This document shows positions 2,773 to 55,201 of a stretch of 64,000 bases of DNA, piece by piece. The stretch is from Patescibacteria group bacterium. Its GTDB lineage: Bacteria > Patescibacteriota > Patescibacteriia > Magasanikbacterales > GWA2-37-8. The stretch is taken from contig SCQK01000013.1 of assembly GCA_004321885.1 (NCBI GenBank), forward strand, positions 64,001 through 128,000. The letters are read 5' to 3'. Position 1 is the first letter of the stretch, and each line of letters opens with the position of its first letter. A program made the position numbers and the translations under genes. The notes beneath the pieces are model-generated. The model did no database searches and was not told the origin of the DNA. It saw only the letters and a program-made list of their open reading frames with translations.

Positions 2773-3399
2773 TTATCGCGAATAAAACTCAATGATAGTT
2801 TTGGCGTCAAAACCCGGCTCGGCAATCGTCGGCGCATTCAAAATTTTCGCGCGCAACTGGGACGGTTCCAGCCCCAGCCATCCGGGCGCCTCCAGCTTGG
2901 CCAGTTTTTCTTCCATTTTATCGTAAAGCAGGCTTTTCTTTTTGGATTCTTTAAGCGCGACCATGTCGCCGACCTTCACGCGGTAAGACGGAATATTGAC
3001 CGGACGGCCGTTTACGGACAGATGGCTGTGGCTCACGATTTGCCTGGCCGCGGCCCGGGATTTGCCCAAACCCATTCTAAACGCCACATTATCCAGGCGC
3101 GACTCCAGATAGGAAATCAAAAACTTGCCGGTGTTGCCGGTTTTCTTTGCGGCTTCGGCCACATAATTGGCAAACTGCCTTTCGCGCAGGCCGTACAATC
3201 GCTTGGCTTTTTGCTTCTCAAACAATTGTTTGCCGTAAACCGAGCGCTTGGAGTGCTTTTTGCTCGGCCCGTGCGCGCCCGGCGGATAATTGCGCTTTAC
3301 CATGGTGCATTTCGGCCCAAAACATTTTTCGCCTTTCAGCATCAGTTTAACGCCGGCTCCGCGGCACTGGGCGCATTTTGAATCTAACATTAAAACCAT
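2773..3399 (-). CDS. rpsD: 30S ribosomal protein S4
   Basis: N-terminal zinc-ribbon-like DSKCAQCRGAGVKLMLKGEKCFGPKCTMVKRNYPPGAHG aligns with Thermus-type S4 ([26 protein letters not shown]...). S4 body follows. Start Met approximate. Confidence 0.85.
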   Translation of the reverse strand: MVLMLDSKCAQCRGAGVKLMLKGEKCFGPKCTMVKRNYPPGAHGPSKKHSKRSVYGKQLFEKQKAKRLYGLRERQFANYVAEAAKKTGNTGKFLISYLESRLDNVAFRMGLGKSRAAARQIVSHSHLSVNGRPVNIPSYRVKVGDMVALKESKKKSLLYDKMEEKLAKLEAPGWLGLEPSQLRAKILNAPTIAEPGFDAKTIIEFYSR

Positions 3400-4881: not shown

Positions 4882-5349
4882 TCAAGGGGCGGCTGGCAAA
4901 TTATCCCCATGATTTCCGCTGTCATTCCCGCCCGCGAGTGGAAATCCATTTGCGTACACCCAGTATTTATACAATAAAAAATTCCAGGCCACGGCCACGG
5001 CAATATTTGCCACGCGCGCCAGGCGATAATCCAGGCCGAATTTTTCGTTAAAAAACCACATCCAGCCAATGGCGATGATGTAATTCAAAAACATTACCAC
5101 CAAAAAACGGGCCGCCTGCGTGGCGGCGCATCCGCGGGCTCCAAAAGACCAGTATTTATTCAGCAAAAAAACATAAGCCACCATAAACACCTGGTTTATG
5201 GCCACGGCCGCAACCGGACGCAGACGGGCATATTCTTTGAGCAAATAAAGCGAGCCGACGTCCAAAAACAAGGCGCTAAGCCCCACCAAAAAATATTTGG
5301 CAAACTGCGCTCGGCTGGCCCACAGTTTTTTTATAATATCTTTTATCAT
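4882..5349 (-). CDS. GtrA-like family membrane protein (putative polysaccharide-synthesis flippase component)
   Basis: MIKDIIKKLWASRAQFAKYFLVGLSALFLDVGSLYLL...YKYWVY fits the GtrA/DPM pattern. ATG at 5347-5349 overlaps the alaS stop (ATGA). Confidence 0.55.
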   Translation of the reverse strand: MIKDIIKKLWASRAQFAKYFLVGLSALFLDVGSLYLLKEYARLRPVAAVAINQVFMVAYVFLLNKYWSFGARGCAATQAARFLVVMFLNYIIAIGWMWFFNEKFGLDYRLARVANIAVAVAWNFLLYKYWVYANGFPLAGGNDSGNHGDNLPAAP

Positions 5350-7202
5350 TCTAATATCGCCTTTATCCTCCGCACGCCGGCGCTCACTGCCTCTTCTTTG
5401 ATAATGCGGAATTTTCCCAGCACACCCGTGTGCTCCACGTGCGGTCCGCCGCATATTTCGCGGCTAAAACATTGCGAGTTCTCGTGGGCTTCAACTTTGG
5501 CTTGCGAGTCGCCCACGGAATAGACCTTGACTTTTTGCCCGTAACGTGCTTCAAACAATCCAATGGCCCCCAATTTTTTGGCCTGTTCCACGCTCATTTC
5601 TTCAAAAACCACCGTATAATCGCGCTTTATGGCATAGTTGACAAGTTCTTCAATTTGTGCTTTCTGATTTTCAGTCAGCTTCTCGGGATGGCTAAAATCA
5701 AAGCGCAAACGCTCGGCCGTAATATTGCTGCCGCGCTGTGTCACATGCTCGCCCAACACCTTGCGCAGGGCGGCGTGGAGCAAATGCGTGGCCGTGTGGT
5801 ATTTTATGGACATCTCGCCGGTATCAGCCAGCCCGCCCTTGAATTTTTGCTCGGCGCCGGCCCGAGAAAGCTCCTGATGCTTTTTCATTTCCTCGTTAAA
5901 TCCTTTGATATCAACACTTAATCCTTTTTCCTCCGCCAATTCTATCGTCAGTTCAATCGGGAAGCCATAACTTTGATACAGGTCAAAAGCATCTTTCGCG
6001 GAAATTATTTTTCCGCCGTCAGTCACATTGTCATTCCCCCGACTAAGTACGGGGGAATCCAGTAACTCCTCAAATTTCGCCATTCCTCGTTCAATCGTAT
6101 TCCTAAATTTACTCTCCTCTTTTGCCATTTCGTTTATCACAAACTCGCGGTTGCGTTCCACTTCCGGATAAACATCGCTAAAAATTTTGATTGTTTCCTC
6201 GGCCATGGCCGAGGAAAAATTTTCTTTTATTCCCAGCAGTCGTCCGTGGCGCACGGCGCGGCGAATCAAACGTCTCACCACATACCCCTGGTCCACGTTG
6301 CTTGGCGCTATCCCCTTGTCATCGCCCATGATCATGGTGGCGGTACGCAAATGGTCGGCGATAACGCGCATTGATTTGGTGACTTCCGCGTTTTCCACGT
6401 ATTCGCGCCCGGAAATCTCTTCAATTTTTTGTATCAAAGGCCAAAAAGTGTCCACCTGAAAAACATCGGCAAAGCCGTTTAAGGCGACCAGCGTGCGCTC
6501 CAGACCCATGCCAGTGTCCACGTTCTTTTGTTTGAGGGGCGCGTAACTACCATCAACCAGTTTATTGTACTCCATGAAAACGTCGTTCCAAATTTCCAGC
6601 CAATTGTCTTCGTCGTTTTCCGGGTTGCTCTTTTTGGGTGGAAGCTCAGACTCCCCCATCCAATAAAACATCTCCGTGTCCGGACCGCACGGCCCGGTGG
6701 CTCCGGCCGGCCCCCACCAATTATTTTCTTTCGGTAAAAAACAAATTTTGTGCTCTGGCACGCCCGCTTCTTTCCAAATTTCGGCCGATTCTTCGTCGCG
6801 CTCGGCTGTTTTGCCTCCCTTAAACACGGACACGGCCAATTTCTTCGGGTCCAGCCCCAGCCATTTTTGGTCCGTTAAAAATTCCCAACTCCACTGTATC
6901 GCTTCCTTTTTAAAATAGTCACCCAGCGACCAGTTGCCGAGCATTTCAAAAAAAGTATCGTGGCGGTTGTCCCCCACTTCGTCAATATCCTGCAAGCGCG
7001 CGCATTTTTGCGCGCTGGCCAAACGCTTGCCCTCGGGATGTTTTTCGCCCAGTAAATACGGCACCAGCGGGTGCATGCCGGCGGTGGTAAACAAAACCGT
7101 CGGATCGTTTTCCGGAACGAGCGAGGCCGACAAAATCACCTTGTGTCCTTTACTGACAAAAAAATCCAAATATTTCTGCCGCAGTTGTTTTGATATGAGC
7201 AT
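5346..7202 (-). CDS. alaS: Alanyl-tRNA synthetase, short form lacking the C-terminal C-Ala domain; contains one in-frame palindromic insert
   Basis: Class II catalytic core (FTTAGMHPLVPYLLG, FFEMLGNWSLGDYFK), editing-domain motifs HTATHLLHAALRKVLGEHVTQRGS and CGGPHVEHTG. 618 aa against about 870 typical. Insert LDSPVLSRGND is encoded by the family A element at 6030-6060. Confidence 0.85.
   Translation of the reverse strand: MLISKQLRQKYLDFFVSKGHKVILSASLVPENDPTVLFTTAGMHPLVPYLLGEKHPEGKRLASAQKCARLQDIDEVGDNRHDTFFEMLGNWSLGDYFKKEAIQWSWEFLTDQKWLGLDPKKLAVSVFKGGKTAERDEESAEIWKEAGVPEHKICFLPKENNWWGPAGATGPCGPDTEMFYWMGESELPPKKSNPENDEDNWLEIWNDVFMEYNKLVDGSYAPLKQKNVDTGMGLERTLVALNGFADVFQVDTFWPLIQKIEEISGREYVENAEVTKSMRVIADHLRTATMIMGDDKGIAPSNVDQGYVVRRLIRRAVRHGRLLGIKENFSSAMAEETIKIFSDVYPEVERNREFVINEMAKEESKFRNTIERGMAKFEELLDSPVLSRGNDNVTDGGKIISAKDAFDLYQSYGFPIELTIELAEEKGLSVDIKGFNEEMKKHQELSRAGAEQKFKGGLADTGEMSIKYHTATHLLHAALRKVLGEHVTQRGSNITAERLRFDFSHPEKLTENQKAQIEELVNYAIKRDYTVVFEEMSVEQAKKLGAIGLFEARYGQKVKVYSVGDSQAKVEAHENSQCFSREICGGPHVEHTGVLGKFRIIKEEAVSAGVRRIKAILE
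6030..6060. repeat. Palindromic element, family A, in frame within alaS
   Basis: gtcattcccccgactaagtacgggggaatcc; the reading frame continues through it. Confidence 0.7.
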
Positions 7203-7941: not shown

Positions 7942-9000
7942 CTATTTTTTCTTCAACGTCGTTATCGGCCTACTTTGAGTAATGTATACTGTACCGCTTT
8001 CCATGGCCCATTCAATATCACAAGGGAAACCATAGTGTTGCTCAATTTTCTTGCACACCTTGGCCACTTCAATAATTTCTTTGCCGGTCAGCTTCTGCTT
8101 ACCCCCCTCTTTCTCACTCAACTCAATCCATTTGTTGGAGTCTCTCCCCTTTATAAGGGGAGAGTTAGTGAGGGGTAATTTCGCTTTCACCAACTTCTTC
8201 GTCTGTACTCCAACATTTATATCTACAATACTCATTTCGCTTTTGGAAACAATATAACTGTCGGGTGTAATCTGGCCGCTCACAATCGCTTCGCCCAATC
8301 CAAACCCGGCCTCAATAATCATCTGGTCGGGGTCTTCAGTAACCGGGTGCACAGTAAAGGCGATGCCCGAAATTTCCGACTGCACCATTTTCTGCACCAC
8401 TACCGCGACCGAAACATAATGGTCAATCAGTTTTTTTTCGTGACGATAAAAAATCGCGCGGGGGGTGAAAAGCGAAGACCAGCATTGCTTAACTTTTTCA
8501 ACAACGTTAACGCGCGTGGTGTTCAAATAGGTTTCCAGCTCCCCGGCCCAACTGGCCACGTCGCTGTCCTCGGCCGTAGCGCTGCTTCTCACCGCCACCA
8601 GGTTGTCATCCTGAACTTGTTTCAGGATCCCCGTTCGCCGTCTGTCATTCAGACCCCGCTTAGCGGGGGAGGAATCCCTCCCGCCCAACTCATCAAACGC
8701 CCCCAATATCTCATTCTCCAAATCTTTCGGCATGGGCGTGTCGTGTATCACATCGCGCAAAACATTACTCGCCTTGTCCACGCTGTTGGTGTCTTCGGGA
8801 TCCACGTCAGCCAATCGCGCCTCAATCTCTTCTTTCAATTTCGTTTCCTCAATAAATCTGTCAAACGCGCTCGCCAATACCACAAAACCCGGCGGCACAC
8901 GCAGTTTCGCTTTAGTCATCTCGCCAAGCGAAGCGCCCTTCCCGCCCGCGCTGGCCACATCTTTCTTGGAAATATCCTTAAAAAATTTTATGTGAGGCAT
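7942..9000 (-). CDS. Stand-alone PEP synthase / pyruvate phosphate dikinase N-terminal nucleotide-binding (PPDK_N, ATP-grasp) domain protein; carries three in-frame palindromic inserts
   Basis: VASAGGKGASLGEM, RSSATAEDSDVASWAGELETYLN, AVVVQKMVQSEISGIAFTVHPVT are PPDK_N hallmarks. No phosphohistidine or PEP-binding domain follows. Inserts [32 protein letters not shown] (elements at 8605-8630 and 8644-8680) and NSPLIKGRDSN (8143-8175). Confidence 0.8.
   Translation of the reverse strand: MPHIKFFKDISKKDVASAGGKGASLGEMTKAKLRVPPGFVVLASAFDRFIEETKLKEEIEARLADVDPEDTNSVDKASNVLRDVIHDTPMPKDLENEILGAFDELGGRDSSPAKRGLNDRRRTGILKQVQDDNLVAVRSSATAEDSDVASWAGELETYLNTTRVNVVEKVKQCWSSLFTPRAIFYRHEKKLIDHYVSVAVVVQKMVQSEISGIAFTVHPVTEDPDQMIIEAGFGLGEAIVSGQITPDSYIVSKSEMSIVDINVGVQTKKLVKAKLPLTNSPLIKGRDSNKWIELSEKEGGKQKLTGKEIIEVAKVCKKIEQHYGFPCDIEWAMESGTVYITQSRPITTLKKK
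8143..8175. repeat. Palindromic element, family D (CTCTCCCCTTTATAAGGGGAGAGTTAGTGAGGGG), in frame in the PPDK_N gene
   Basis: Reverse-complement copy at 22373-22405 in the PEP-synthase-like gene, where it encodes SPLYKGRVSEG. Confidence 0.7.
8605..8630. repeat. Palindromic element, family B (GTCATCCTGAACTTGTTTCAGGATCC), in frame in the PPDK_N gene
   Basis: Hairpin ATCCTGAA-CTTGT-TTCAGGAT; further copies at 30589, 31039, 44822, 54761 and inverted variants at 54820 and 55176. Confidence 0.7.
8644..8680. repeat. Palindromic element, family A variant (GTCATTCAGACCCCGCTTAGCGGGGGAGGAATCCCTC), in frame in the PPDK_N gene
   Basis: Similar copy at 43602-43640 in dnaX. Confidence 0.65.
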
Positions 9001-14879: not shown

Positions 14880-16361
14880 TCAAATTTTCTTCACAATCCC
14901 CTTTGTCGCATCCACTTCCACCATGTCGCCGTCTCTGAAAACCTTAGTGGCGATTTTCGTGCCAATCACGCAGGGAATACCGAGTTCGCGCGAGACGATA
15001 GCCGCATGGCAGACAATGCCGCCCATATCAGTAACTATCGCCGACGCCTTTTTCATGGCCGCCACGATTTCCGGTATGGTCATTTCCGAAACCAACACAT
15101 TTCCACTTACCATTTTTTTCATATCCTCTATGGTATTTACAATCGTTACTTTCCCTTTGGCCGCGCCCGGAACCGCGGTTTGCCCCCGCAGTTCTTGAAC
15201 TGATAAATCCACTTCTTCCTCACGAGCCATATTCATTTTTGACATTACGTATCTCGCTTCTTCGCCAACAATAAACTTGGATCCATTGGCGTCCACATAT
15301 AGTAAACTATATTTCCAACGTTCATTTAATTCATCCGCGTCGCACTGCCCGCTTCTAATCGCAGAAGGAACTTCTTGTGGCAAAAAATATCGCGCTTGAC
15401 GAATTGAAATAAGCAATCTTTTTGCTACTTCCCGCAGTATTTTATCAAGCGCATAAAATCCTAAAAATTGGTGCTCTTTGCTCCATGCCTTTTGATAAAC
15501 AAGGTCTTTGGTAACGCGAAATAAATGCTTGTGTTTTTCATCAATTTTTAAATTATCAAACCAGGCGTTTTGTTTTTTTTCAGCTTCAAAAAACTGATTT
15601 TTCTGACGCAAAATTTCTTGCTCAATATCGGTCCCAGCTTCTATAATCTCCTGAATATGCTTTACCACATCCTTCTCTGTCCAAGTCGGCCCTTCACAGG
15701 CAAAGGGCAAAAAACAATACTTCCGCGCATGCGCCGCAATTTTTTCCTCCCCAACGGATAATTGAATTTTGCCTTCCACAACTTCCTTCGCCAGCTCATA
15801 AAGTTCCAAATGTTCCTGTGTACCCAAAGCCGGCTTTGTCAGCGTGAGTAAATCAGCCAAAACAAGAACGGCATCTATATCAGGATTAAACTTTTTTAAA
15901 TAGTTCAATAAATATATTCCTAATTGTTCAAACGGAATTTCCAAAAGCCAACTCGGAACACGATATAAGTGTAATTCCGTCTGTAACGGCAACAGTTGTT
16001 CGTAAATTCGCGCGAGTTCTTCGTTGGATAACTTTGATAAATCACTCTCAATAATTTTCCAGGCATAATTTCTAAGCTGCGGTAAAATTTTATCTGATTT
16101 TACATGCATATCATCAATGAGCCGGGGATTTTCCACAATTGCTTCTAAAGTTTTTTTACCGGCCACTATCCATTCATTGCGAATATAGAATAACTTTGTC
16201 GCGCCGTTTTCATACAAAGGAAGGCTGTGTGCCACATCGGCAAGCCCCAGCTTGCTCAATTCGCTTGTCATGGCGCGAAAAGGCGGCTCCAATGTAATGG
16301 GAGGATACTGATACAACTTCTCAATCATTATCCATTCTTTTCTTAACAATTCTTCATTCAT
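14880..16361 (-). CDS. Paralog 3: unknown N-terminal domain (about 390 aa) plus C-terminal PEP-utilizing swivel domain
   Basis: ...GAAKGKVTIVNTIEDMKKMVSGNVLVSEMTIPEIVAAMKKASAIVTDMGGIVCHAAIVSRELGIPCVIGTKIATKVFRDGDMVEVDATKGIVKKI; 4-nt overlap with paralog 4. Confidence 0.75.
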   Translation of the reverse strand: MNEELLRKEWIMIEKLYQYPPITLEPPFRAMTSELSKLGLADVAHSLPLYENGATKLFYIRNEWIVAGKKTLEAIVENPRLIDDMHVKSDKILPQLRNYAWKIIESDLSKLSNEELARIYEQLLPLQTELHLYRVPSWLLEIPFEQLGIYLLNYLKKFNPDIDAVLVLADLLTLTKPALGTQEHLELYELAKEVVEGKIQLSVGEEKIAAHARKYCFLPFACEGPTWTEKDVVKHIQEIIEAGTDIEQEILRQKNQFFEAEKKQNAWFDNLKIDEKHKHLFRVTKDLVYQKAWSKEHQFLGFYALDKILREVAKRLLISIRQARYFLPQEVPSAIRSGQCDADELNERWKYSLLYVDANGSKFIVGEEARYVMSKMNMAREEEVDLSVQELRGQTAVPGAAKGKVTIVNTIEDMKKMVSGNVLVSEMTIPEIVAAMKKASAIVTDMGGIVCHAAIVSRELGIPCVIGTKIATKVFRDGDMVEVDATKGIVKKI

Positions 16362-17836
16362 ATTTTTCTCACAACCCCACTTGTCGCGTCAACCTTCACC
16401 ATATCGCCGTCTTTGAGTACGGAAGTGATTTTTTTCACGCCCACCACGCAGGGAATTTTAAATTCGCGCGCCACAATGGCCGCATGGCAAGTGATGCCGC
16501 CGTCCTCCGTCACGATAGCCGAGGCGCGTTTCATAGCCGGCAACATCGCCGGATAAGTCGTGAGCGCCAACATAATATCTCCTTTTTCCACCTTATCCGC
16601 GTCTGTTAACGATAGAACAACTTTTACTTTGCCTGAAACAAAACCCGGATACGCGGTGGCGCCCTTAAATCCGTCTTCAACATTTAATTTTATTTCTTCA
16701 ATATCCAAGCCGGCTATAATCGCGTCGGCCTCTTTGCCGTAATAATACTTTGTTCCGCTTTCAGTCGCTTCAATCACGCAATGCTTAATTCTCTCATTTA
16801 TTAAATCAATGTCCAATTTGTCACGCAATAGAGCGTTTTCCATTTCGTCCGTCAAAAAATGATTCGCTTGTTTATGCGATATATTCAATCGCTTGGCAAT
16901 TTCTTTGGTGAGCATGTCCAAAACATAGTGCCCATGCCAAATACAATATTTTCTGAGATCCTTAAGCCAAATAATCTCGCGGGCGATGGCGAACAATCGC
17001 GCGAGCTGCGGGGGCAAGTTGATTTCGGAAATTACTTTATTTTGTTCCGCGATGAGTTTCTCGTAGCGTTCTTTTTCTTCTTTGAGCATTTGGTCCGGGT
17101 CAGTTACGCGAGGCAGGGCTTCCTTAACCTGCTCTTCATAATATTTCAAATCATAAGCCGGCCCGATATAGCCGTATGGCGTCCAGCGCCATTTTTGCCA
17201 ATGCTTTGTTATTAATTCTTTGTACTGGATTCCCGCTTTCGCGGGAATGACAACGGCCTTAAGCAACTCCAAAAAATCCAATTGCTCCAACTGGACAAAA
17301 TTCTGTTTAGCCGGAGTGGTAAGCAGAACAAAATATTCTATTGTTTTTACCGGATCATCTATGCCTAAACTTTTTAAATGTTCTCCTAATTTTTGCTTTA
17401 AATACTCCGAAAAAATCATGCCGTCGCTGTCCACAAACCAAGTGGTGGCGATTGATGGAAGATGACCTTGCTCGGTAAGCCATAAAAGCGTTTTGTAGTA
17501 ATCAAAAAGCTCGGCATTGTTTAGCGCGCCAAAATCTTTTCCCACCAAACTTTGAGCGTAATTAAAATAATCCCAATTTAATTTTTCGGTTCGCGCATGC
17601 AATTCCTCTGCCCACTGCGGCTCGGTAATAATTTTTTCCGCAATCCATTTCACCGTCGTTTCTATTACTTCAACCGGCACATACGCCGTATCCCTGTCGT
17701 TTCTATAATCTTGATACCAAACAGTAAATAATTGTTTGCCATTCTTTTTTGGAATATGCGCAAAAATCCCTTGGGGGTAATAGCCCAGCATGTTAAAATT
17801 CACGTCGCGGATATCAAAATTTATTCGCCATTTCAT
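16358..17836 (-). CDS. Paralog 4: unknown N-terminal domain (about 390 aa) plus C-terminal PEP-utilizing swivel domain
   Basis: ...ATAYPGFVSGKVKVVLSLTDADKVEKGDIMLALTTYPAMLPAMKRASAIVTEDGGITCHAAIVAREFKIPCVVGVKKITSVLKDGDMVKVDATSGVVRKI. Confidence 0.75.
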   Translation of the reverse strand: MKWRINFDIRDVNFNMLGYYPQGIFAHIPKKNGKQLFTVWYQDYRNDRDTAYVPVEVIETTVKWIAEKIITEPQWAEELHARTEKLNWDYFNYAQSLVGKDFGALNNAELFDYYKTLLWLTEQGHLPSIATTWFVDSDGMIFSEYLKQKLGEHLKSLGIDDPVKTIEYFVLLTTPAKQNFVQLEQLDFLELLKAVVIPAKAGIQYKELITKHWQKWRWTPYGYIGPAYDLKYYEEQVKEALPRVTDPDQMLKEEKERYEKLIAEQNKVISEINLPPQLARLFAIAREIIWLKDLRKYCIWHGHYVLDMLTKEIAKRLNISHKQANHFLTDEMENALLRDKLDIDLINERIKHCVIEATESGTKYYYGKEADAIIAGLDIEEIKLNVEDGFKGATAYPGFVSGKVKVVLSLTDADKVEKGDIMLALTTYPAMLPAMKRASAIVTEDGGITCHAAIVAREFKIPCVVGVKKITSVLKDGDMVKVDATSGVVRKI

Positions 17837-19004: not shown

Positions 19005-20186
19005 TCAAGCAATCACTCCCCCGCCCAAACATTCACCTTTAAGATAAAATACCGCGAACTGACCCGGGGTGACGGCGCGTTGGGGGTGAGTGAAAGTAAC
19101 TAAAGGGAGGGAAACAGTGCATCTCTGCAAAGGTTGACGGTGACGCAGGCGCACCTGGCATTTTAGCGGGAAATTGGGTGTGTTTCCACTTATCCAATTT
19201 ACGTCTTTGACCCTTGCTTCCATACTGTACAGCATATCGCTTTTCTCGTCGCCGACAATCAGTTCGTTCTTTTTTATATTCTTACCGACAACAAAGAGAG
19301 GCAACGCGCTGGATTCCCCCGTACTTAGTCGGGGGAATGACAAACTGATACGTTGGCCGATGGTGTAAAACGCCAGGCCATCGTGCTGGCCCACGACTTT
19401 ACCCCTCTCTCGCCACCGCCGCGAGGCGGGGCCCCGCCGTGGCGGTGGCTCTCCCCTTGTAAAGGGGAGAGAGAGCACTATGTTCCCGGGTTTGAATTTT
19501 ATCTTTTTCATCAAAAATTCTTTCATCGGCACTTCGCCGATGAAACAAATGCCCATGCTTTCTTCTTTTTCCGCCGTGGGCAAGCCGAATTTTTTTGCCA
19601 GGGCGCGCACCTGTGGTTTGGCATACTCACCGATGGGAAACAAAACGTGGCGCAGTTGTGCTTGAGATAATTGATTCAAAAAATATGTTTGGTCTTTATT
19701 GAGATCTTTTGACTGCAAGAGGTGCAGAACCCCACCCCCCTTTCGTTCCCCCTTTATTAAGGGAGGAAGAAACGCGTAGTGTCCAGTCGCTAATTTATCA
19801 AACCCTAACGCACGGGCTTTATCCAGCCAGGCGCCAAACTTGATGAATTTATTGCACAAAACATCCGGATTGGGCGTGCGGCCGGCCTTGTACTCGCTAT
19901 ACATGTAATCCAAAACATCGCGCTTGTATTTGCGCGTAAAATCCAGCTTCAAAAGTTTAATGCCCAGTTTGGCGGCCACGCGCAAGGCGTCGCGATAATC
20001 GCCGGTCCAACAGCGCGATCCCACCCCCCCTTCGCCCCCCCCTCTGGCATGAGGGGATATTTTCTCATCATAGTTCACCATGAACGCGCCGCTTACGTTA
20101 TATCCTTGCTTAACCAAAAGAGCGGCGGCAACGGACGAATCCACGCCGCCGGACATGGCGACTAAAATTTTTTGCTTTTTTTTCAT
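19005..20186 (-). CDS. mnmA: tRNA-specific 2-thiouridylase MnmA, carrying four in-frame palindromic-element inserts
   Basis: ILVAMSGGVDSSVAAALLVKQGYNV (PP-loop), GRTPNPDVLCN, NKDQTYFL, GLPTAEKEESMGICFIG. Non-homologous inserts ISPHARGGGEGGVGSR, PPLIKGERKGGGV, LPFTRGEPPPRRGPASRRWRERGKVVG and SLSFPRLSTGESSA map onto elements at 20022-20057, 19736-19776, 19395-19475 and 19311-19341. Confidence 0.85.
   Translation of the reverse strand: MKKKQKILVAMSGGVDSSVAAALLVKQGYNVSGAFMVNYDEKISPHARGGGEGGVGSRCWTGDYRDALRVAAKLGIKLLKLDFTRKYKRDVLDYMYSEYKAGRTPNPDVLCNKFIKFGAWLDKARALGFDKLATGHYAFLPPLIKGERKGGGVLHLLQSKDLNKDQTYFLNQLSQAQLRHVLFPIGEYAKPQVRALAKKFGLPTAEKEESMGICFIGEVPMKEFLMKKIKFKPGNIVLSLPFTRGEPPPRRGPASRRWRERGKVVGQHDGLAFYTIGQRISLSFPRLSTGESSALPLFVVGKNIKKNELIVGDEKSDMLYSMEARVKDVNWISGNTPNFPLKCQVRLRHRQPLQRCTVSLPLVTFTHPQRAVTPGQFAVFYLKGECLGGGVIA
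19311..19341. repeat. Palindromic element, family A (reverse orientation), in frame in mnmA
   Basis: ggattcccccgtacttagtcgggggaatgac is the reverse complement of the alaS copy. Confidence 0.7.
19395..19475. repeat. Compound palindromic element, family D type (…CTCTCCCCTTGTAAAGGGGAGAGAG), in frame in mnmA
   Basis: cccctctctcgccaccgccgcgaggcggggccccgccgtggcggtggctctccccttgtaaaggggagagagag; nested inverted repeats. Confidence 0.6.
19736..19776. repeat. Palindromic element, family D type (CCCCCTTTATTAAGGGAGG), in frame in mnmA
   Basis: ccacccccctttcgttccccctttattaagggaggaag. Confidence 0.55.
20022..20057. repeat. Poly-C/poly-G palindromic element in frame in mnmA
   Basis: cccaccccccccttcgccccccccctctggcatgagggg. 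Confidence 0.5.
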
Positions 20187-20200
20187 AACAATATAATACC

Positions 20201-20236
20201 ACACAAAACAAAAACTGCCAGCCTTGCGGCCGGCAG
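20201..20236 (-). terminator. Terminator hairpin CTGCCAGCCTTGCGGCCGGCAG with a minus-strand T-run, downstream of the zinc-ribbon gene
   Basis: Inverted repeat 20215-20236; RC of 20201-20214 is TTTTTGTTTTGTGT. Confidence 0.55.
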
Positions 20237-20565: not shown

Positions 20566-20881
20566 AACTTTGCTGTTTTTGTTCCCAAAATGTGTTTTGA
20601 GATTGTTTTAGTCGACCTATTTTGGGAACTTTGGCCGAAAACCGGCCTTTTTTAACGTTTCCAAAATTTGTTAAATTATATCACAAAAGCCTGATTTTGT
20701 CAATATCCCCCTAATTTTATCCACAACTATTCCACCAGGCGGCTATTGACAAAAAAACTTATTTGTGATACATATCTGGTATCTTACAATCAAGCCCGGA
20801 GAATGTTTGGCATAAGGAGAAGCGTCCCCTCCTTCGCTTCTTTCCTTTTGTCAAACATCTTCCGGGTTTTTTGTTTGCAGA

Positions 20882-20910
20882 TTGACATTTGGATAAAAAT
20901 TTTATACAAT
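20882..20910 (+). promoter_or_regulatory. Sigma70-type promoter TTGACA-N17-TACAAT upstream of the tRNA-Asp locus
   Basis: ttgaca (20882-20887), 17-nt spacer, tacaat (20905-20910); first tRNA-like sequence begins at 20930. Confidence 0.6.
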
Positions 20911-20929
20911 GAAGCCAACAATTTAACTT

Positions 20930-20984
20930 GGGTCGGTAGTTCAACTGGTTAGAGCATCCCGACTGAGTCGGGAAAGTTGCGGGT
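20930..20984 (+). pseudogene. tRNA-Asp-like 5' fragment with the anticodon arm replaced by the palindrome TCCCGACTGAGTCGGGA, truncated in the T-stem by the GIY-YIG ORF
   Basis: GGGTCGGTAGTTCAACTGGTTAGAGCA is identical to positions 1-26 of the intact tRNA-Asp at 21251. Then the 17-nt palindrome, AAGTTGCGGGT, and the sequence diverges into ATGGAGG (start of the GIY-YIG ORF). Confidence 0.6.
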
Positions 20985-21245
20985 ATGGAGGTAATTTTAT
21001 ATTATATTTACAGTAAAAAACTGAATAAATACTACTTAGGAAAAACCAATGATTTGGAGCGACGTTTTATAGAGCATAATAACGGTGAAGAAATTTTTAC
21101 CAGAACTGGTATTCCATGGAAATTAGTTGGATTTATTAAAGCCAGCGCGAAGATAATTAGTAAATTAGAGTATAAACTAAAAAAAGCAAAAAATCCAAAA
21201 TACGTTTATTGGTATTTCAATCAACACGGAACTGTATTGGAATAA
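20985..21245 (+). CDS. Small GIY-YIG nuclease (COG2827/YhbQ-Slx1-like) nested in the tRNA-Asp locus
   Basis: MEVILYYIYSKKLNKYYLGKTNDLERRFIEHNNGEE... matches GIY-x10-YLG-x-T-NDLERR-x3-H-N of the GIY-YIG (URI) domain; 86 aa. Confidence 0.7.
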   Translation: MEVILYYIYSKKLNKYYLGKTNDLERRFIEHNNGEEIFTRTGIPWKLVGFIKASAKIISKLEYKLKKAKNPKYVYWYFNQHGTVLE

Positions 21246-21250
21246 TGAGC

Positions 21251-21324
21251 GGGTCGGTAGTTCAACTGGTTAGAGCACTGCCCTGTCACGGCAGAAGTTG
21301 CGGGTTCGAGTCCCGTCCGACCCG
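21251..21324 (+). tRNA. tRNA-Asp (anticodon GTC)
   Basis: GGGTCGG-TA-GTTC-AACTGGTTA-GAGC-A-CTGCC-CTGTCAC-GGCAG-AAGTT-GCGGG-TTCGAGT-CCCGT-CCGACCC-G. Cloverleaf with U33, A37, anticodon GUC. Confidence 0.85.
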
Positions 21325-21345
21325 CTTATTATTCCATCAAAGCAA

Positions 21346-21406
21346 GCTGGTTAGAGCATCCCGACTGAGTCGGGAAAGTTGCGGGTTCGAGTCCCGTCCG
21401 ACCCGC
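21346..21406 (+). pseudogene. tRNA-Asp-like 3' fragment (D-loop to 3' end) with a palindrome replacing the anticodon arm
   Basis: AGCTGGTTAGAGCA-TCCCGACTGAGTCGGGA-AAGTT-GCGGGTTCGAGTCCCGTCCGACCCGC; lacks acceptor and D-stem 5' strands. Together with the 20930 fragment it reconstructs one variant tRNA. Confidence 0.6.
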
Positions 21407-21412
21407 ATAAAA

Positions 21413-24379
21413 CTATTTAACCGAGAACAAAGTAAACCAGCCGAGCATCTCGTCAAAGGTTTTTTTGTCGCCAGAAATTTCTATGATGTTTTTGGATTTT
21501 TTGAAACCTTGGGGATAAAGCTCCATTAATTTTGTGCCGTCGGCGCGAGTATAAATTTTGGCCGGAATATTTTGCCATACAGTTGTGGTAGACGAACCGG
21601 ACAGAGAACCCCCGGTCGCCTCAGGCGACCTCGGGATGACAGCTGAGGCTATTATAAACCGGCTTAACTTATCGGCCGACTGAAAACGCACCACCTTGTC
21701 CCCGTGCTCCACTGTCCAGGCCGCCGGATATTGCAAAGTAAACCGCGCGAAAGAATCCTCGCTGTACAAACTCTTGGGCTGTTCGCTTTCCCGCTTGCGA
21801 ATCTCGGCCGCCAGCTGTTCCAGCTGCGTTTTCAATTTTCCGGTTTCTTCCACGATGGCTTTTTTCACGTTTTCGTTCACAATCTGATTATTGGGCTGGC
21901 AGGCGTAGCCGCCCAGCGTGGAAAGCAAACCCACCACGCCAAAAATCAACAACAATTTCGTAGCCGCCGCTATTTTTATAATGGCGCCTTTTTTGGCCGA
22001 AACTTTTTTCTCCAGCCCGGCCACCCGCTCGCGCGCCTTTAGCACCGTGTCCGGATTAAGCGAAATGCTGTCTATCCCCTCTTGCACCAAAAAATCGGCG
22101 AACTCGGGATAGTCAGAGGGCGCCTGACCGCAGATGCCCACCTTGCGTCCATACTTGTGCGCCGTGGAAATCACCTGTCGTATCAAAGTTTTTACGGCCT
22201 CGTTTCTTTCATCATACACATGGCTCACCAAAGCGCTGTCGCGATCAACACCTAGGGTCAACTGGGTTAAATCGTTGGAGCCGATGCTAAAGCCGTCAAA
22301 AATCTGGCTGTACTCTTTGGCCAAAATCACGTTGGAAGGAATCTCGCACATCACGTAAACTTTCAAGCCAGACCCCTCACTAACTCTCCCCTTATAAAGG
22401 GGGGAGGAGCTTCCTCGCTCCAATCCGAATTCTTTCATCACAGCCAGCACCTTTTTTCCCTCGGCCACGGTGCGGCAAAACGGCACCATCACGATTATAT
22501 TTTTCAGCCCCCACTCTTCACGCGCCATTTTCAATGCCGCGCATTCCAGCCTAAAACCGGGCTTGTAGGCCGGGTCATAATAGCGCGAAGCCCCGCGCCA
22601 GCCCAGCATGGGGTTTTCTTCTTTGGGCTCGTACAAATGCCCGCCGATAAGCGTGGCGTATTCATTGGTTTTGAAATCAGACAAGCGCACAATAACATCG
22701 CGCGGATAATACGCGGCCGCGATAAAAGCGATGCCCTCGGCCAGCTTGTCCACGCAGTACCGGGCCTTGTCTTTGTAGCCGATGGTCAGCTCGTCAATTT
22801 TGGCTTTCAATTCCCGGTCCGCCAATTTTTTGTAATTTACCAAAGCGAGCGGATGGATTTTTATAAAATTGGTGAAAATAAATTCCTCGCGCGCCAGGCC
22901 CACGCCGTCACTGGGGATATGCGACAAAGCAAAAGCGCTGCCCGGGTCGCCCACGTTCATCATTATTTTGGTGCGGGTTTTGGCAATGGCTTTTATTTCC
23001 TGTTTTTCTATTTCAAAAGGCAGGCGCCCTTTGTACACATAACCGGCCTCGCCCTCGGCGCAGGAAACAGTCACTTCCTGCCCGGGCTTCACAATCTGAC
23101 GCGCCCTGGCCGCGCCCACCAGGCACGGCGTGCCCAGCTCGCGGCTGACAATAGCCGCGTGCGAGGTCTTTCCCCCCTGCTCCGTGACAATGGCCGAGGC
23201 AATGCGCATTATCGGCTCCCAATCCGGGTCCGTAATGCGCGTAATCAAAACTTCGCCTGGCCGAAAGCTCTTCATCTGCCTGGGCGAGTTTATTACCCGC
23301 GCTTTGCCCTGACCGATTTTTTGCCCGATGCTGATTCCCTCCACCAAAACTTTGCCTTTTTGTTTCAAATGGTACTGCTCTATTACATTTATATTGTCGC
23401 GCGAACGCACTGTTTCGCTGCGCGCCTGCACGATATAGAGTTTTCCGCTCCGTCCGTCTTTGGCCCACTCTATATCCATGGGCCGCTGGTAATGCTCTTC
23501 TATTTGCATGCCCCACTTGGCCAGTTGCAAGACTTCGTCCGGGGAAACGCAGAACCGGTGCTGGTCCGGCATTTTTACTGTTTCCTGCCTGGTGCCTGTT
23601 TTTCCGTAAACAAGTTTTACTTCTTTGCTCCCCAGCCGCTTGCTGATGATTGATTTCAATCCGCGCCGAACCCCATCTTTGAAAACAAAAAACTGGTCCG
23701 GTATCACCCGGCCCTTGACCACATATTCGCCCAAGCCATAAGCCGCGTTTATAAGCACCACGCCCTTAAAACCCGACTCGGTGTCCAGAGTGAACATCAC
23801 GCCGCTGGCGCCCAAATCCGAACGCACCATTTCCTGCACGCAAACCGAAAGCGCCACAGCCGCGTGGTCAAAGCCCTTGTCCACGCGATAGGAAATGGCG
23901 CGGTCCGTAAAAAGAGAAGCAATACATTTCTGGCAGGCTAAAATAAGTTCATCGGCGCCGACGACATTCAAATAGGTTTCCTGCTGGCCGGCAAAACTGG
24001 CGTCGGGCAAATCCTCGGCCGTGGCCGACGAACGCACGGCCACTGAACTCTTGCCCAATTCTTTATACGCCGCTTTCAATTCATCTGCTATTATTCCTGG
24101 AAACTCGGCGCTTAAAACCATCTGGCGAATCTTGGCGCCGGCCGCGGCCAGCGATTTCACGTTTTTGCCGTCGGTCTTGTTTAGAATTTCTTTTATTTTT
24201 TTATCCAATTTGTCCTCACGCAAAAAAAGCCGGTAGGCGTCGGCAGTAAGAGCGAACCCGTTTGGCACGGCCACTCCATTGGCAGTCAAATTATTATACA
24301 TCTCGCCCAGCGACGCGGTCTTGCCGCCCACGCTGGGAATGTCTTTGATGCCGAGTTCCTTAAACCAGCGGATATACAT
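21413..24379 (-). CDS. PEP synthase / pyruvate-phosphate-dikinase-like enzyme (PPDK_N + swivel His domain + PEP-utilizing TIM-barrel) with an about 200-aa C-terminal extension containing a TM helix; one in-frame palindromic insert
   Basis: VGGKTASLGEM, VRSSATAEDLPDASFAGQQETYLN, GGKTSHAAIVSRELGTPCLVG, MCEIPSNVILAKEYSQIFDGFSIGSNDLTQLTLGVDRDS, RKVGICGQAPSDYPEFADFLVQEGIDSISL. Then IIKIAAATKLLLIFGVVGLLSTLGGYA (TM) and a further 190 aa. Insert SPLYKGRVSEG comes from the element at 22373-22405. Confidence 0.8.
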   Translation of the reverse strand: MYIRWFKELGIKDIPSVGGKTASLGEMYNNLTANGVAVPNGFALTADAYRLFLREDKLDKKIKEILNKTDGKNVKSLAAAGAKIRQMVLSAEFPGIIADELKAAYKELGKSSVAVRSSATAEDLPDASFAGQQETYLNVVGADELILACQKCIASLFTDRAISYRVDKGFDHAAVALSVCVQEMVRSDLGASGVMFTLDTESGFKGVVLINAAYGLGEYVVKGRVIPDQFFVFKDGVRRGLKSIISKRLGSKEVKLVYGKTGTRQETVKMPDQHRFCVSPDEVLQLAKWGMQIEEHYQRPMDIEWAKDGRSGKLYIVQARSETVRSRDNINVIEQYHLKQKGKVLVEGISIGQKIGQGKARVINSPRQMKSFRPGEVLITRITDPDWEPIMRIASAIVTEQGGKTSHAAIVSRELGTPCLVGAARARQIVKPGQEVTVSCAEGEAGYVYKGRLPFEIEKQEIKAIAKTRTKIMMNVGDPGSAFALSHIPSDGVGLAREEFIFTNFIKIHPLALVNYKKLADRELKAKIDELTIGYKDKARYCVDKLAEGIAFIAAAYYPRDVIVRLSDFKTNEYATLIGGHLYEPKEENPMLGWRGASRYYDPAYKPGFRLECAALKMAREEWGLKNIIVMVPFCRTVAEGKKVLAVMKEFGLERGSSSPLYKGRVSEGSGLKVYVMCEIPSNVILAKEYSQIFDGFSIGSNDLTQLTLGVDRDSALVSHVYDERNEAVKTLIRQVISTAHKYGRKVGICGQAPSDYPEFADFLVQEGIDSISLNPDTVLKARERVAGLEKKVSAKKGAIIKIAAATKLLLIFGVVGLLSTLGGYACQPNNQIVNENVKKAIVEETGKLKTQLEQLAAEIRKRESEQPKSLYSEDSFARFTLQYPAAWTVEHGDKVVRFQSADKLSRFIIASAVIPRSPEATGGSLSGSSTTTVWQNIPAKIYTRADGTKLMELYPQGFKKSKNIIEISGDKKTFDEMLGWFTLFSVK
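22373..22405. repeat. Palindromic element, family D (reverse complement of 8143-8175), in frame in the PEP-synthase-like gene
   Basis: cccctcactaactctccccttataaagggggg. Confidence 0.7.
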
Positions 24380-24419: not shown

Positions 24420-27279
<2,860 letters not shown>

Positions 27280-54760: not shown

Positions 54761-54786
54761 GTCATCCTGAACTTGTTTCAGGATCC
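54761..54786. repeat. Palindromic element, family B (GTCATCCTGAACTTGTTTCAGGATCC)
   Basis: Read directly; 30 nt from the inverted-orientation copy at 54820. Confidence 0.7.
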
Positions 54787-54819
54787 CCACTGTCCAATTC
54801 GCCGACTCGCTCGATCGGA

Positions 54820-54844
54820 GATGCCGAAACAAGTTCGGCATGAC
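54820..54844. repeat. Palindromic element, family B, inverted orientation (GATGCCGAAACAAGTTCGGCATGAC); left flank of the GIY-YIG gene
   Basis: Loop ACAAG is the RC of family B CTTGT; stem ATGCCGAA/TTCGGCAT. Confidence 0.65.
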
Positions 54845-54865
54845 AGTGACGCGGCTGGAAACTTA

Positions 54866-55159
54866 TCACTCCCATTCGTCGCTCAAGTCTTTCAAAGTGG
54901 GATTAAGTCCTTTTACTAAATTTATTTTCCACTGACGATGCCAATTTTTGATTTGTTTCTCTCTGTTAATTGCGTCACGTGGATCCAAAAAAACTTCGTA
55001 ATAAACTAACTTTTTCAGATTATACTGTTTTGTAAATCCCTCATTGATTCCATTTTTATGTTCTTCAAGCCGACGTTCTAGATTGTTCGTTATACCTACA
55101 TATAAAACCGTGTTGATGATGTTTGTTAAAATATACACATAAAATGTTTTCCCCTCCAT
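54866..55159 (-). CDS. Small GIY-YIG nuclease (COG2827/YhbQ-Slx1-like), second copy, flanked by family B elements
   Basis: MEGKTFYVYILTNIINTVLYVGITNNLERRLEEHKNG...; GIY-YIG (URI) core; 97 aa. Confidence 0.7.
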   Translation of the reverse strand: MEGKTFYVYILTNIINTVLYVGITNNLERRLEEHKNGINEGFTKQYNLKKLVYYEVFLDPRDAINREKQIKNWHRQWKINLVKGLNPTLKDLSDEWE

Positions 55160-55175
55160 ACGATTTGCGATTGGA

Positions 55176-55200
55176 GATGCTGAAATAAATTCAGCATGAC
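55176..55200. repeat. Palindromic element, family B, inverted orientation (GATGCTGAAATAAATTCAGCATGAC); right flank of the GIY-YIG gene
   Basis: Same orientation as the 54820 copy, so the two form direct repeats around the nuclease ORF. Confidence 0.65.
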
Positions 55201-55201
55201 A

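Follow-up and report, generated by a model that had tools for sequence, protein, structure and literature searches.

A GIY-YIG nuclease gene and an intact tRNA-Asp gene between hairpin-bearing tRNA remnants: a candidate selfish tRNA-gene cassette in Patescibacteria

Organization of the tRNA-Asp locus

We analysed a tRNA-Asp locus of a Patescibacteria group bacterium (Magasanikbacterales; GenBank assembly GCA_004321885.1). It lies in a stretch of 64,000 nucleotides, hereafter the window, which corresponds to positions 64,001 to 128,000 of contig SCQK01000013.1; positions in the window are counted from its first letter. At this locus, a gene for a small protein of the GIY-YIG nuclease family and an intact tRNA-Asp(GUC) gene stand between two tRNA-derived remnants that carry the same palindrome (Table 1). 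An initial annotation, made from the sequence alone, had listed these elements. The promoter, the 5′ fragment, which equals tRNA-Asp 1-54 outside the palindrome, the open reading frame (ORF), assigned to the GIY-YIG family by Pfam, and the intact tRNA, on which ARAGORN and Rfam agree, were all recovered as described. The 3′ fragment is also present, with the extent and the palindrome that had been reported, but its first nucleotide is 21347 and not 21346.

The 5′ remnant begins 19 nt past the promoter and stops in the T-loop after T54 (GCGGGT), the start codon of the ORF being immediately next. The stop codon of the ORF is separated by 5 nt from the intact tRNA-Asp, which in turn is separated by a spacer of 22 nt from the 3′ remnant. 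The promoter would yield a single transcript comprising the 5′ remnant, the ORF and tRNA-Asp.

Table 1. Position of the features of the tRNA-Asp locus in the window.
Feature	Position	Strand	Remarks
Sigma-70-type promoter, TTGACA-17-TACAAT	20882-20910	+	11/12 consensus positions
5′ remnant, tRNA-Asp positions 1-54	20930-20984	+	55 nt; anticodon arm swapped for palindrome
Direct repeat, copy 1	20945-20984	+	40 nt = 12 nt + 17-nt palindrome + 11 nt; exact identity with 21347-21386
Palindrome TCCCGACTGAGTCGGGA, copy 1	20957-20973		7-bp stem, 3-nt loop, −10.1 kcal/mol
GIY-YIG ORF	20985-21245	+	86 aa; Pfam PF01541, E=1e-9
5′ arm of 12-bp acceptor-helix extension, GGAATAATGAGC	21239-21250	+	overlaps ORF stop codon
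Intact tRNA-Asp(GUC), functional copy	21251-21324	+	ARAGORN; Rfam tRNA, 66.8 bits
3′ arm of acceptor-helix extension, GCTTATTATTCC	21325-21336	+	
3′ remnant, tRNA-Asp D-loop to 3′ end	21347-21406	+	60 nt; same palindrome; contains direct repeat copy 2 (21347-21386)
Palindrome TCCCGACTGAGTCGGGA, copy 2	21359-21375		
Phosphoenolpyruvate (PEP)-utilising enzyme gene, convergent	21413-24379	−	stop codon 6 nt from end of 3′ remnant

The exact repetition of the 40-nt sequence at the inner ends of the two remnants defines a repeat period of 402 bp. The GIY-YIG ORF is the sole ORF within this 402-bp unit, and no tyrosine or serine recombinase gene is found there. As had been proposed, the two fragments jointly rebuild a full variant tRNA: joined in silico, they form a cloverleaf in which 59 of 74 positions agree with tRNA-Asp and all mismatches fall inside the 17-nt anticodon arm. 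The arm of this reconstructed variant has a 7-bp stem and a 3-nt loop (−10.1 kcal/mol, versus −3.5 for the real anticodon arm). ARAGORN forced the variant into a 'tRNA-Ser(tga)' with a C at position 33, and this position is also a C when a 5-bp stem is imposed. When applied to the window itself, ARAGORN and Rfam reported the inner tRNA alone at the locus and made no call for the remnants.

The variant exists only as two overlapping pieces 402 bp apart and has no 7-nt anticodon loop with U33. Neither the tRNA-Asp-pattern matches nor the GIY-YIG loci examined contained an uninterrupted form of it, and the idea that a variant tRNA gene had been there before the rearrangement is not supported. The alternative offered in the initial annotation, namely that the palindrome-armed tRNA is a functional oddity, has no support either, given C33, the 3-nt loop and the decay of the 5′ parts of such copies in relatives. 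On the same grounds, and for lack of a contiguous gene, a role as suppressor or odd decoder was rejected. A group I intron was also excluded: no Intron_gpI match was obtained between 20700 and 21600 even at E≤10, and the flanks overlap by 40 nt.

The inner tRNA-Asp is enclosed by complementary arms that prolong its acceptor helix by 10-12 bp and also pair the discriminator base. This pairing is kept with a different sequence in two related loci, L001 (3263-3274 / 3350-3361) and L047, and is absent from tRNA-Asp sites devoid of the ORF and remnants (empty sites, see below). The extension could function as a processing stalk or belong to a terminator.

The GIY-YIG protein

The 86-aa protein scores 39 bits against PF01541 (cut-off 22.6) over residues 4-73. 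By inspection, its motif residues YYIY, YLGKT, RR..EHN and E62 align with those of the family and of the UPF0213 protein BH0048, whose structure (1zg2) is the nearest solved one, with a weak match (E=0.018). The protein consists of the catalytic domain only and is UPF0213/YhbQ-like. Its N-terminal region gave weak matches to grpIintron_endo (18.7 bits, cut-off 56) and to endonuclease models of PHROG and PADLOC; the only match to the PADLOC defence models was one of 12 bits, to a generic homing-endonuclease model. No match to the exact ORF sequence was found on public contigs, and a word-indexed homology search returned two proteins only. The sole close homologue, 60% identical, belongs to Candidatus Magasanikbacteria and is found on contigs from six metagenomes. 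At E≤1e-3, the protein family comprises 1227 clusters at 50% identity.

A second GIY-YIG ORF is present in the window on the minus strand (54866-55159, 97 aa, PF01541 E=1.2e-19), directly downstream of a secA-like gene. It is a canonical UPF0213-like ORF with no adjacent tRNA. Palindromes of another family stand on both sides of it (54765-54847 and 55177-55205: TGTCATGCYGAA-loop-TTCRGCATCTCC, and GGATCCTGAAACAAGTTCAGGATGAC).

Recurrence of the module in other genomes

We scanned one genome per species with a degenerate protein pattern and retrieved 33 loci that encode relatives of the ORF (33-60% identity). Their hosts are mostly Bacteroidota, and include Moranbacteria, Dojkabacteria, another Patescibacteria genome, Planctomycetota and Ignavibacteria. 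The ORF has a tRNA gene on its own strand within about 120 nt in 29 of the 33 loci, and within about 450 nt in 31. These linked tRNAs represent eleven types besides Asp, twelve when Asp is counted, among them His, Pro, Lys, Ser, Leu, Ala, Val, Met, Phe, Asn and Asp. In at least 27 of the 33 loci, a second copy or a fragment of the neighbouring tRNA carries a GC palindrome and is located across the ORF or in an upstream tandem.

The loci show three types of layout. In type I, found in most Bacteroidota, the order is tRNA, terminator, ORF, hairpin-bearing remnant and terminator. Type II consists of a 5′ remnant with one or more hairpins, the ORF and an intact tRNA (L011, L020, L021, L023, L033 and L137). 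Type III, with both remnants, is that of the window, of L001-L007 (Magasanikbacteria) and of L009, a tRNA-Pro locus of Planctomycetota. The Magasanikbacteria locus has the same layout as the window: a 5′ remnant (GCGGGTCGGTA ... GTTGCGAGT), the ORF, an intact tRNA-Asp and a 3′ remnant extending from the D-loop to CCGACCCGC. Both of its remnants carry TCCCGAC-type hairpins as well as further insertions.

The geometry of the junctions is well conserved. The 5′ remnants are broken at the T-stem or T-loop in the window, L001, L137, L162 and the tRNA-Pro locus L009, and homologous 3′ remnants are found in L001, L047 and L162. In types II and III, the hairpin is separated from the ORF-side junction by 8-12 nt of tRNA homology in all 10 junctions measured. 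In type I, nine loci have 9-13 nt at this place and eight have more. In the window, the junctions lie 11 nt and 12 nt from the palindrome, so that the direct repeat is centred on it. The ORF of L137 runs into its tRNA. In a tree of the ORFs, the genes group according to the type of tRNA and of palindrome. One clade consists of the window, L007 and L137, all associated with tRNA-Asp, and has the tRNA-Pro element of Planctomycetota as its sister.

Repeated units were observed in several loci. Two or three truncated hairpin-bearing tRNA copies, each with the same spacer of about 40-60 nt behind it, stand in tandem upstream of the intact tRNA in L013 (1160-1350), L019 (1260-1350), L022 (981-1330), L025 (35-200) and L028 (1124-1360). 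In L030, L034 and L037, units made of ORF and remnant are arranged in tandem.

This recurrence bears on the possibility that the locus is an assembly artefact made of collapsed or chimeric repeats; the initial annotation had named misassembly among the findings that would refute it. An exact 40-nt repeat could indeed mislead short-read assemblers. However, independent assemblies of six metagenomes show this architecture for the Magasanikbacteria relative (L001-L006), as do other, diverged genomes, which all but excludes an artefact.

Empty, full and decayed tRNA-Asp loci

The initial annotation had suggested comparing the locus in related genomes. In this comparison, the module was met again, and empty, full, decayed and ORF-less states were all found. 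We scanned metagenomes for CTGGTTAGAGCA-N17-AAGTTGCGGGT, a pattern that fits both the real anticodon arm and the variant one, and collected at least 120 loci; occupied and empty tRNA-Asp sites are thereby compared between different species, not within one population. Empty sites (L096, L108, L110, L125, L138 and L148) contain a single tRNA-Asp, which equals the inner copy of the window and lies 10-25 nt past a consensus promoter. Full elements are those of the window, of L151, which is the Magasanikbacteria locus, and of L137, whose ORF is 55-60% identical and whose 5′ remnant bears two hairpins. Decay takes two forms here: only the last ~20 ORF codons remain in L070, and the ORF is frameshifted in L057, where it belongs to the Ser-type clade. 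Among the ORF-less loci, L132 has a 28-nt spacer that resembles the first and last ORF codons, L073 and L162 have both remnants with about 20-25 nt at the place of the ORF, and L047 retains tRNA-Asp and the 3′ remnant only.

The outer, hairpin-bearing copy of the window is placed where the tRNA stands in empty sites, and for this reason we regard it as the former resident gene. The ORF and the inner tRNA constitute the putative inserted cassette. This agrees with the earlier proposal that a tRNA gene was split by a block carrying the GIY-YIG gene and a tRNA-Asp, the outer copy holding the resident place relative to the promoter. The origin of the inner tRNA has to be revised in part. The acceptor stems of the outer remnant and of the inner tRNA differ in L001 (GGGTCGG versus GGACCGG), L047 and L132. 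In these three loci, the outer stem is of the GGGTCGG or GGGCTGG type and the inner one is GGACCGG or GGGCTGG, and all these variants occur as normal tRNA-Asp acceptors in other lineages. Inner tRNA and remnants thus have different histories there: the insertion of a tRNA-Asp is upheld, but not its origin as a simple local copy. We also considered that a difference in acceptor stem could provide immunity, and rejected it because inner and outer stems are identical in the window, L070, L137 and L162.

As is the case for homing genes, the element is present or absent at homologous tRNA-Asp sites, and degenerate as well as lost copies occur, a truncated ORF in L032 being a further case of the former. 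The spectrum of empty, full, decayed and remnant-only sites, together with inner and outer copies of unlike origin, is as would be expected of a homing-endonuclease-like selfish gene.

Some loci point to a more complex past. A TCCCGAC hairpin and the double hairpin of the Ser clade are found in one remnant of L070, which suggests that two element lineages visited this site in succession. On the reverse strand of L073 (900-1140), extra tRNA-Asp 3′ fragments in both orientations lie among other hairpins downstream of tRNA-Asp; they are a graveyard of repeated events. L132 contains, on the reverse strand (285-405), an upstream tRNA-Asp copy that has a normal anticodon arm and carries three unrelated hairpins, GATTTCACTTGGTGAAATC, CCCTGTCATTCGACAGGG and GCCATATCGTATGATATGGC, in its variable region and T-loop, a third repertoire.

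Palindromes inside and outside the remnants

The palindrome had been described as dispersed, which holds for related copies and not for identical ones. The exact 17-mer is confined to the two remnants in the 64-kb window. Relatives with at most 3 mismatches, which share the core CCCGAC-TNA-GTCGGG, are located at 679, 3414, 61461 and 62032 (12 strand-matches versus 0.03 expected). Most core copies outside the remnants lie between an A-run and a T-run and are bidirectional-terminator-like. A scan of the window for perfect hairpins revealed several palindrome families, one of which has ATTCC...GGAAT around the same core (3410, 6033 and 19313).

Perfect GC-rich palindromes of two or three families are also found within long ORFs, at 6033-6058, 8142-8164, 17229-17248, 19313-19338, 19449-19471, 25938-25957 and 55921-55943. 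These families include the core placed between GTCATTCC and GGAATGAC, and CTCTCCCCTT-NNN-AAGGGGAGAG. The ORFs that host palindromes are mnmA (19005-20204), those at 5346-7202, 7942-9000 and 16358-17836, and the secA-like ORF. Such palindromes resemble the Rickettsia-type palindromic elements found within coding sequence. The one at 19449-19471 in mnmA apparently contributes the in-frame peptide 'SLPFTRGE' to the protein. The ORF of the PEP-utilising enzyme, in which no palindrome was located, encodes a similar peptide, 'SPLYKGR'.

In the Patescibacteria tRNA-Asp-pattern loci (L047, L070, L073 and L137), the stem TCCCGAC/GTCGGGA and its tRNA-like flanks are nearly invariant. The ORFs, by contrast, are only 55-60% identical. 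The hairpin loop varies (TGA, TCA, TTA or TCC). The palindrome of Bacteroidota is TCCCGA-N(3-10)-TCGGGA, with the compensatory variants TTCCGA..TCGGAA and TCGCGA..TCGCGA, and starts 237-313 nt past the ORF start in most loci, i.e. just beyond the stop codon. The Patescibacteria tRNA-Ser clade has paired 15-nt hairpins, TGCGCC-NNN-GGCGCA and CCCGCC-NNN-GGCGGG, and the Planctomycetota locus has TGGCGCC-NNN-GCGCCA. In every case, the palindrome either takes the place of a whole arm or lies at a loop position of the tRNA-derived sequence, be it the D-loop, the anticodon loop, the variable region or the T-loop. In a pattern scan of the 33 loci, 32 of the 40 palindrome matches lie no more than about 450 nt from the ORF start; in unrelated loci, 758 kb in all, the background is about one every 60 kb. 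The initial annotation had viewed the palindrome as a separate, earlier alteration of the tRNA. Its constant recurrence across phyla, in cognate form and within tRNA-derived sequence beside the ORF, marks it as a hallmark of this gene family and not as an unrelated accident. No known RNA family was recognised in the remnants or hairpins with Rfam, at E≤10 at the locus or at the gathering threshold on 20 related loci, where only tRNAs and one unrelated Flavo-1 were reported. We also rejected the hypothesis that the hairpins are P-nucleotide-like palindromic repair scars, since their sequence is conserved across loci and does not copy the local flanks.

These data can be set against a purely coincidental origin, in which a tandem duplication of tRNA-Asp has decayed, Rickettsia palindromic element-like sequences have settled in the dead copies and the GIY-YIG gene is unrelated to both. 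tRNA loci are rearrangement hot spots, and this genome harbours palindromic elements even within protein-coding ORFs. Yet the ORF, the tRNA and the hairpin-bearing remnant recur together in more than 30 genomes from 4 phyla, with 12 tRNA types (counting Asp) and a fixed geometry. In addition, the acceptor stems of inner and outer copies differ, and the palindrome type tracks the ORF clade. We therefore judge coincidence very unlikely.

A different explanation places the palindrome at the centre. The nuclease could mobilise palindromes, in analogy with repetitive extragenic palindromes (REP) and the REP-associated tyrosine transposases (RAYT): its real substrate would be the GC palindrome, as a DNA hairpin or cruciform, and it would spread or maintain palindromic elements. 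tRNA genes would then be a favoured niche, and the remnants by-products of a cut about 10 nt away from the hairpin and a subsequent duplication. The covariation of palindrome type with ORF clade, the compensatory stem variants and the distance of 8-12 nt that separates the hairpin from the junction facing the ORF, and in the window from both junctions (12 + 17 + 11), are all in line with this explanation. So is the dispersal of the core, rare in other loci, in the window and on the Magasanikbacteria contig of the sister element (L151). The second GIY-YIG ORF of the window, flanked on both sides by palindromes of another family and devoid of a tRNA, points in the same direction and gives a hint of a wider partnership between nuclease and palindrome. 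However, this dispersal is judged from 64 kb and L151, and an A-run and a T-run give most of the remaining copies in the window the look of ordinary terminators. In the 3-kb Bacteroidota loci, the palindrome is nearly restricted to the remnant beside the ORF, with no visible dispersal. Furthermore, we know of no GIY-YIG enzyme that acts as a hairpin transposase. On balance, we regard a palindrome-mobilising nuclease as rather unlikely, though as the foremost rival of the interpretation that we favour. In a broader form, which we put forward tentatively as a possibility with well below even odds, small stand-alone GIY-YIG proteins and cognate GC palindromes would be an unrecognised RAYT/REP-like partnership built on a different fold. 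Recognising its cognate hairpin and cutting about one helical turn from it, the nuclease would plant palindromes and cassettes in tRNA-gene loops and elsewhere in Bacteroidota, Patescibacteria and Planctomycetota, one lineage carrying a spare tRNA against lethal single-copy hits.

The hairpins could also act at the RNA level. The tRNA-derived pieces and hairpins would then be signals for processing or stability, a means of translational control, or an RNA partner or antidote of the protein, and the protein would act in RNA or tRNA metabolism instead of mobility. The hairpins are always at tRNA loop positions, so the flanking stems are kept, and the ORF and tRNA invariably share a strand and are evidently transcribed together. 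The acceptor-helix extension of the inner tRNA is conserved by covariation, and the tandem truncated copies described above recall type III antitoxin repeats. A role in RNA metabolism has been suggested for a prokaryotic Slx1-like GIY-YIG domain fused to a TrmH-type tRNA methyltransferase (PMC1564403). On the other hand, many remnants are unable to fold as tRNA: the 5′ strands of the acceptor are lost or mutated in L019 and L035, and 3′ pieces only are found in L012, L037 and L039. Depending on the clade, the hairpin precedes or follows the ORF, and its loop bases are unconserved and occur in both orientations (TGA, TCA). The predicted fold of the 5′ leader is no better than that of shuffled sequence (z = −1.46), which lends no support to occlusion of the start codon by the 5′ remnant and hairpin. 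The asymmetry between G-U and A-C pairs in the hairpin stems, which could tell a role in RNA from one in DNA, was not discriminating, as imperfect stems are too few. Finally, decay or loss of the ORF with retention of the remnants is typical of selfish genes. A function at the RNA level thus appears improbable to us.

A proposed selfish cassette carrying its own replacement tRNA

We favour the interpretation that the locus is a homing-endonuclease-like selfish cassette of tRNA genes, which disrupts the resident tRNA-Asp and brings a replacement; we give it a probability of roughly 55%. Where the tRNA gene is unoccupied, the nuclease would break it, in this case within or close to the T-loop, and repair would copy the cassette from an occupied allele. 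The tRNA-derived remnants probably serve as homology arms in this process, as they are the only homology that an incoming element could share with a new genome. The host would survive owing to the intact tRNA within the cassette. Many Patescibacteria have single-copy tRNA genes, and an element that breaks such a gene must bring a replacement, which we take to be why the cassette carries a whole tRNA. The ORF would be expressed at a low level from the tRNA promoter, within the tRNA precursor, and its part of the transcript would be cut off by ribonuclease (RNase) P/RNase III-type processing at the extended acceptor helix.

Two roles can be envisaged for the palindrome. It may be the recognition element of the nuclease, or mark the nuclease binding site in the target, because its sequence is conserved, its type tracks the ORF clade and the junctions are 8-12 nt away. 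Alternatively, by its insertion it could abolish the target within the remnants, and so prevent re-cleavage there, and could shorten the uninterrupted homology available for recombination that deletes the ORF.

Several points weigh against this interpretation. Its support is comparative throughout. The 40-nt overlap of the remnants and the conserved palindrome are left unexplained by a clean break and repair alone. Staggered cuts about 10 nt on either side of the hairpin, or integration of a 402-bp circle, would give such an overlap; formally, the 402-bp unit can be described as the single-crossover integration of a circle with one copy of the 40-mer. The presumed target and the inner tRNA have the same sequence, which makes self-cleavage possible, a difficulty covered only by analogy with the phage T4 endonuclease SegB (see below). 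No separate DNA-binding module is recognisable in the 86-aa protein with the NCBIfam, PHROGs and PADLOC libraries, and no relative of the ORF was found in phage records. Lastly, the ORF and tRNA-Asp locus is syntenic in the window and in Magasanikbacteria, with a PEP-utilising enzyme gene near both, and a long vertical residence, in place of frequent mobility, is therefore possible.

We found no published description, among open-access papers and preprints, of GIY-YIG genes linked to hairpin-bearing tRNA remnants. The combination of a minimal single-domain nuclease, a carried replacement tRNA and a cognate palindrome within tRNA-derived flanking repeats appears to be new. If our interpretation is right, it provides a biological context for a very large family, of over 1,200 clusters at 50% identity, whose tiny genes are routinely annotated as 'GIY-YIG nuclease family protein' without a function. 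They would live as parasites in the tRNA genes of cellular chromosomes, and the cognate palindrome within tRNA-derived repeats would be their DNA signature. The pseudo-tRNA calls and tRNA fragments found beside such genes would be explained, and annotation pipelines would be given a rule. The SegB paradigm would be extended from phage to bacteria with single-copy tRNA genes, in which the element must bring a replacement, and the cassette would represent a minimal case of a selfish element making itself indispensable. The data also point to horizontal movement of tRNA genes with such cassettes. Should the 86-aa enzyme recognise the hairpin and cut at a fixed distance, it would be among the smallest site-directed nucleases known and a candidate tool.

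Neighbouring features

Two features adjoin the locus. The convergent gene downstream encodes a PEP-utilising enzyme with PPDK_N, mobile and C domains; about 200 further aa at its C-terminus, among them a hydrophobic segment, form a non-homologous extension. Upstream, a hairpin of about 85 nt (20797-20876) ends with a T-run, and a weak promoter-like site lies at 20763-20790. This conserved hairpin was found beside tRNA-Asp in at least 12 distinct loci of the tRNA-Asp-pattern scan (L001 (1464-1548), L047, L055, L058, L060, L070, L071, L075, L077, L131, L132 and L152) and sits just 3′ of rplT in those whose flanking gene was inspected. It has a covarying outer stem, an invariant and anti-Shine-Dalgarno-like apical loop, CCCCCUCCUUCG, and no Rfam match.

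Comparison with known systems

Stand-alone GIY-YIG proteins of the UPF0213/YhbQ/Slx1-like type have, to our knowledge, no reported linkage to tRNA genes or palindromes. Those of known structure (1zg2, 1ywl) have the same size and single-domain architecture as the protein of the window, with the weak match mentioned above.

Like REP/RAYT systems (REPINs) and Rickettsia palindromic elements, the window contains short GC-rich palindromes that appear dispersed and also occur within genes. As with RAYTs, a single nuclease gene stands between cognate palindromes, whose sequence seems to evolve together with the protein. Both GIY-YIG ORFs of the window are flanked by palindromes, the dispersal being that seen in the 64 kb and L151, with many terminator-like copies. 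RAYTs are relatives of HUH/Y1 transposases, whereas the protein of the element is a GIY-YIG nuclease and not HUH/Y1 transposase-like. We know of no RAYT linked to a tRNA or to a replacement gene.

Integrative elements that target tRNA genes, such as tyrosine-integrase islands and the archaeal pNOB8-type model (PMC3293823), also insert into a tRNA gene whose function is restored, and leave the displaced tRNA fragment as a direct repeat at the other end. In contrast, the unit of the window is 402 bp long and has no integrase or recombinase. It supplies a complete tRNA and not the 3′ part alone, and its repeats have a palindrome in place of a tRNA arm.

Group I introns have been described in tRNA-Asp and tRNA-Asn genes of Patescibacteria; they are self-splicing, lie at position 35/36 and are mostly without endonuclease genes (PMC13011429). 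They share with the window the phylum, the tRNA and the fact that an interrupted tRNA gene was overlooked by annotation tools. In our locus, by contrast, the gene is interrupted at position 54, its two flanks have 40 nt in common, and there is a second tRNA, which is complete.

Judged by analogy, SegB of phage T4 is the closest experimentally studied relative in behaviour. The segB gene, which encodes a GIY-YIG endonuclease, lies inside a tRNA cluster and is co-transcribed with the tRNAs (PMC2330249). The enzyme recognises the T-loop motif of tRNA genes, GGTTCRANTCC, cuts near their 3′ ends and drives nearly 100% inheritance of itself and of the neighbouring tRNA genes (PMC2330249). It is able to cut the tRNA genes of T4 itself, and the restraint proposed combines a hairpin at the translation start with processing of the tRNA precursor beside the stop codon (PMC2330249). 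Its C-terminal DNA-binding region contains a NUMOD3 motif, and a two-domain organisation like that of I-TevI has been suggested (PMC2330249). As with SegB and F-Tfl of phage T5, the GIY-YIG gene of the window is free-standing among tRNA genes. Several features fit the SegB picture: the gene would be on the tRNA transcript, the resident tRNA gene is broken in the T-loop, a stable hairpin lies 11 nt before the start codon of the ORF, and its stop codon is 5 nt from the RNase P site. The element of the window differs from SegB in that its protein is an 86-aa catalytic domain only and that it resides in a cellular chromosome and not in a phage. It also splits its target tRNA gene and supplies a whole replacement, and the conserved GC palindrome in its tRNA remnants has no counterpart in SegB.

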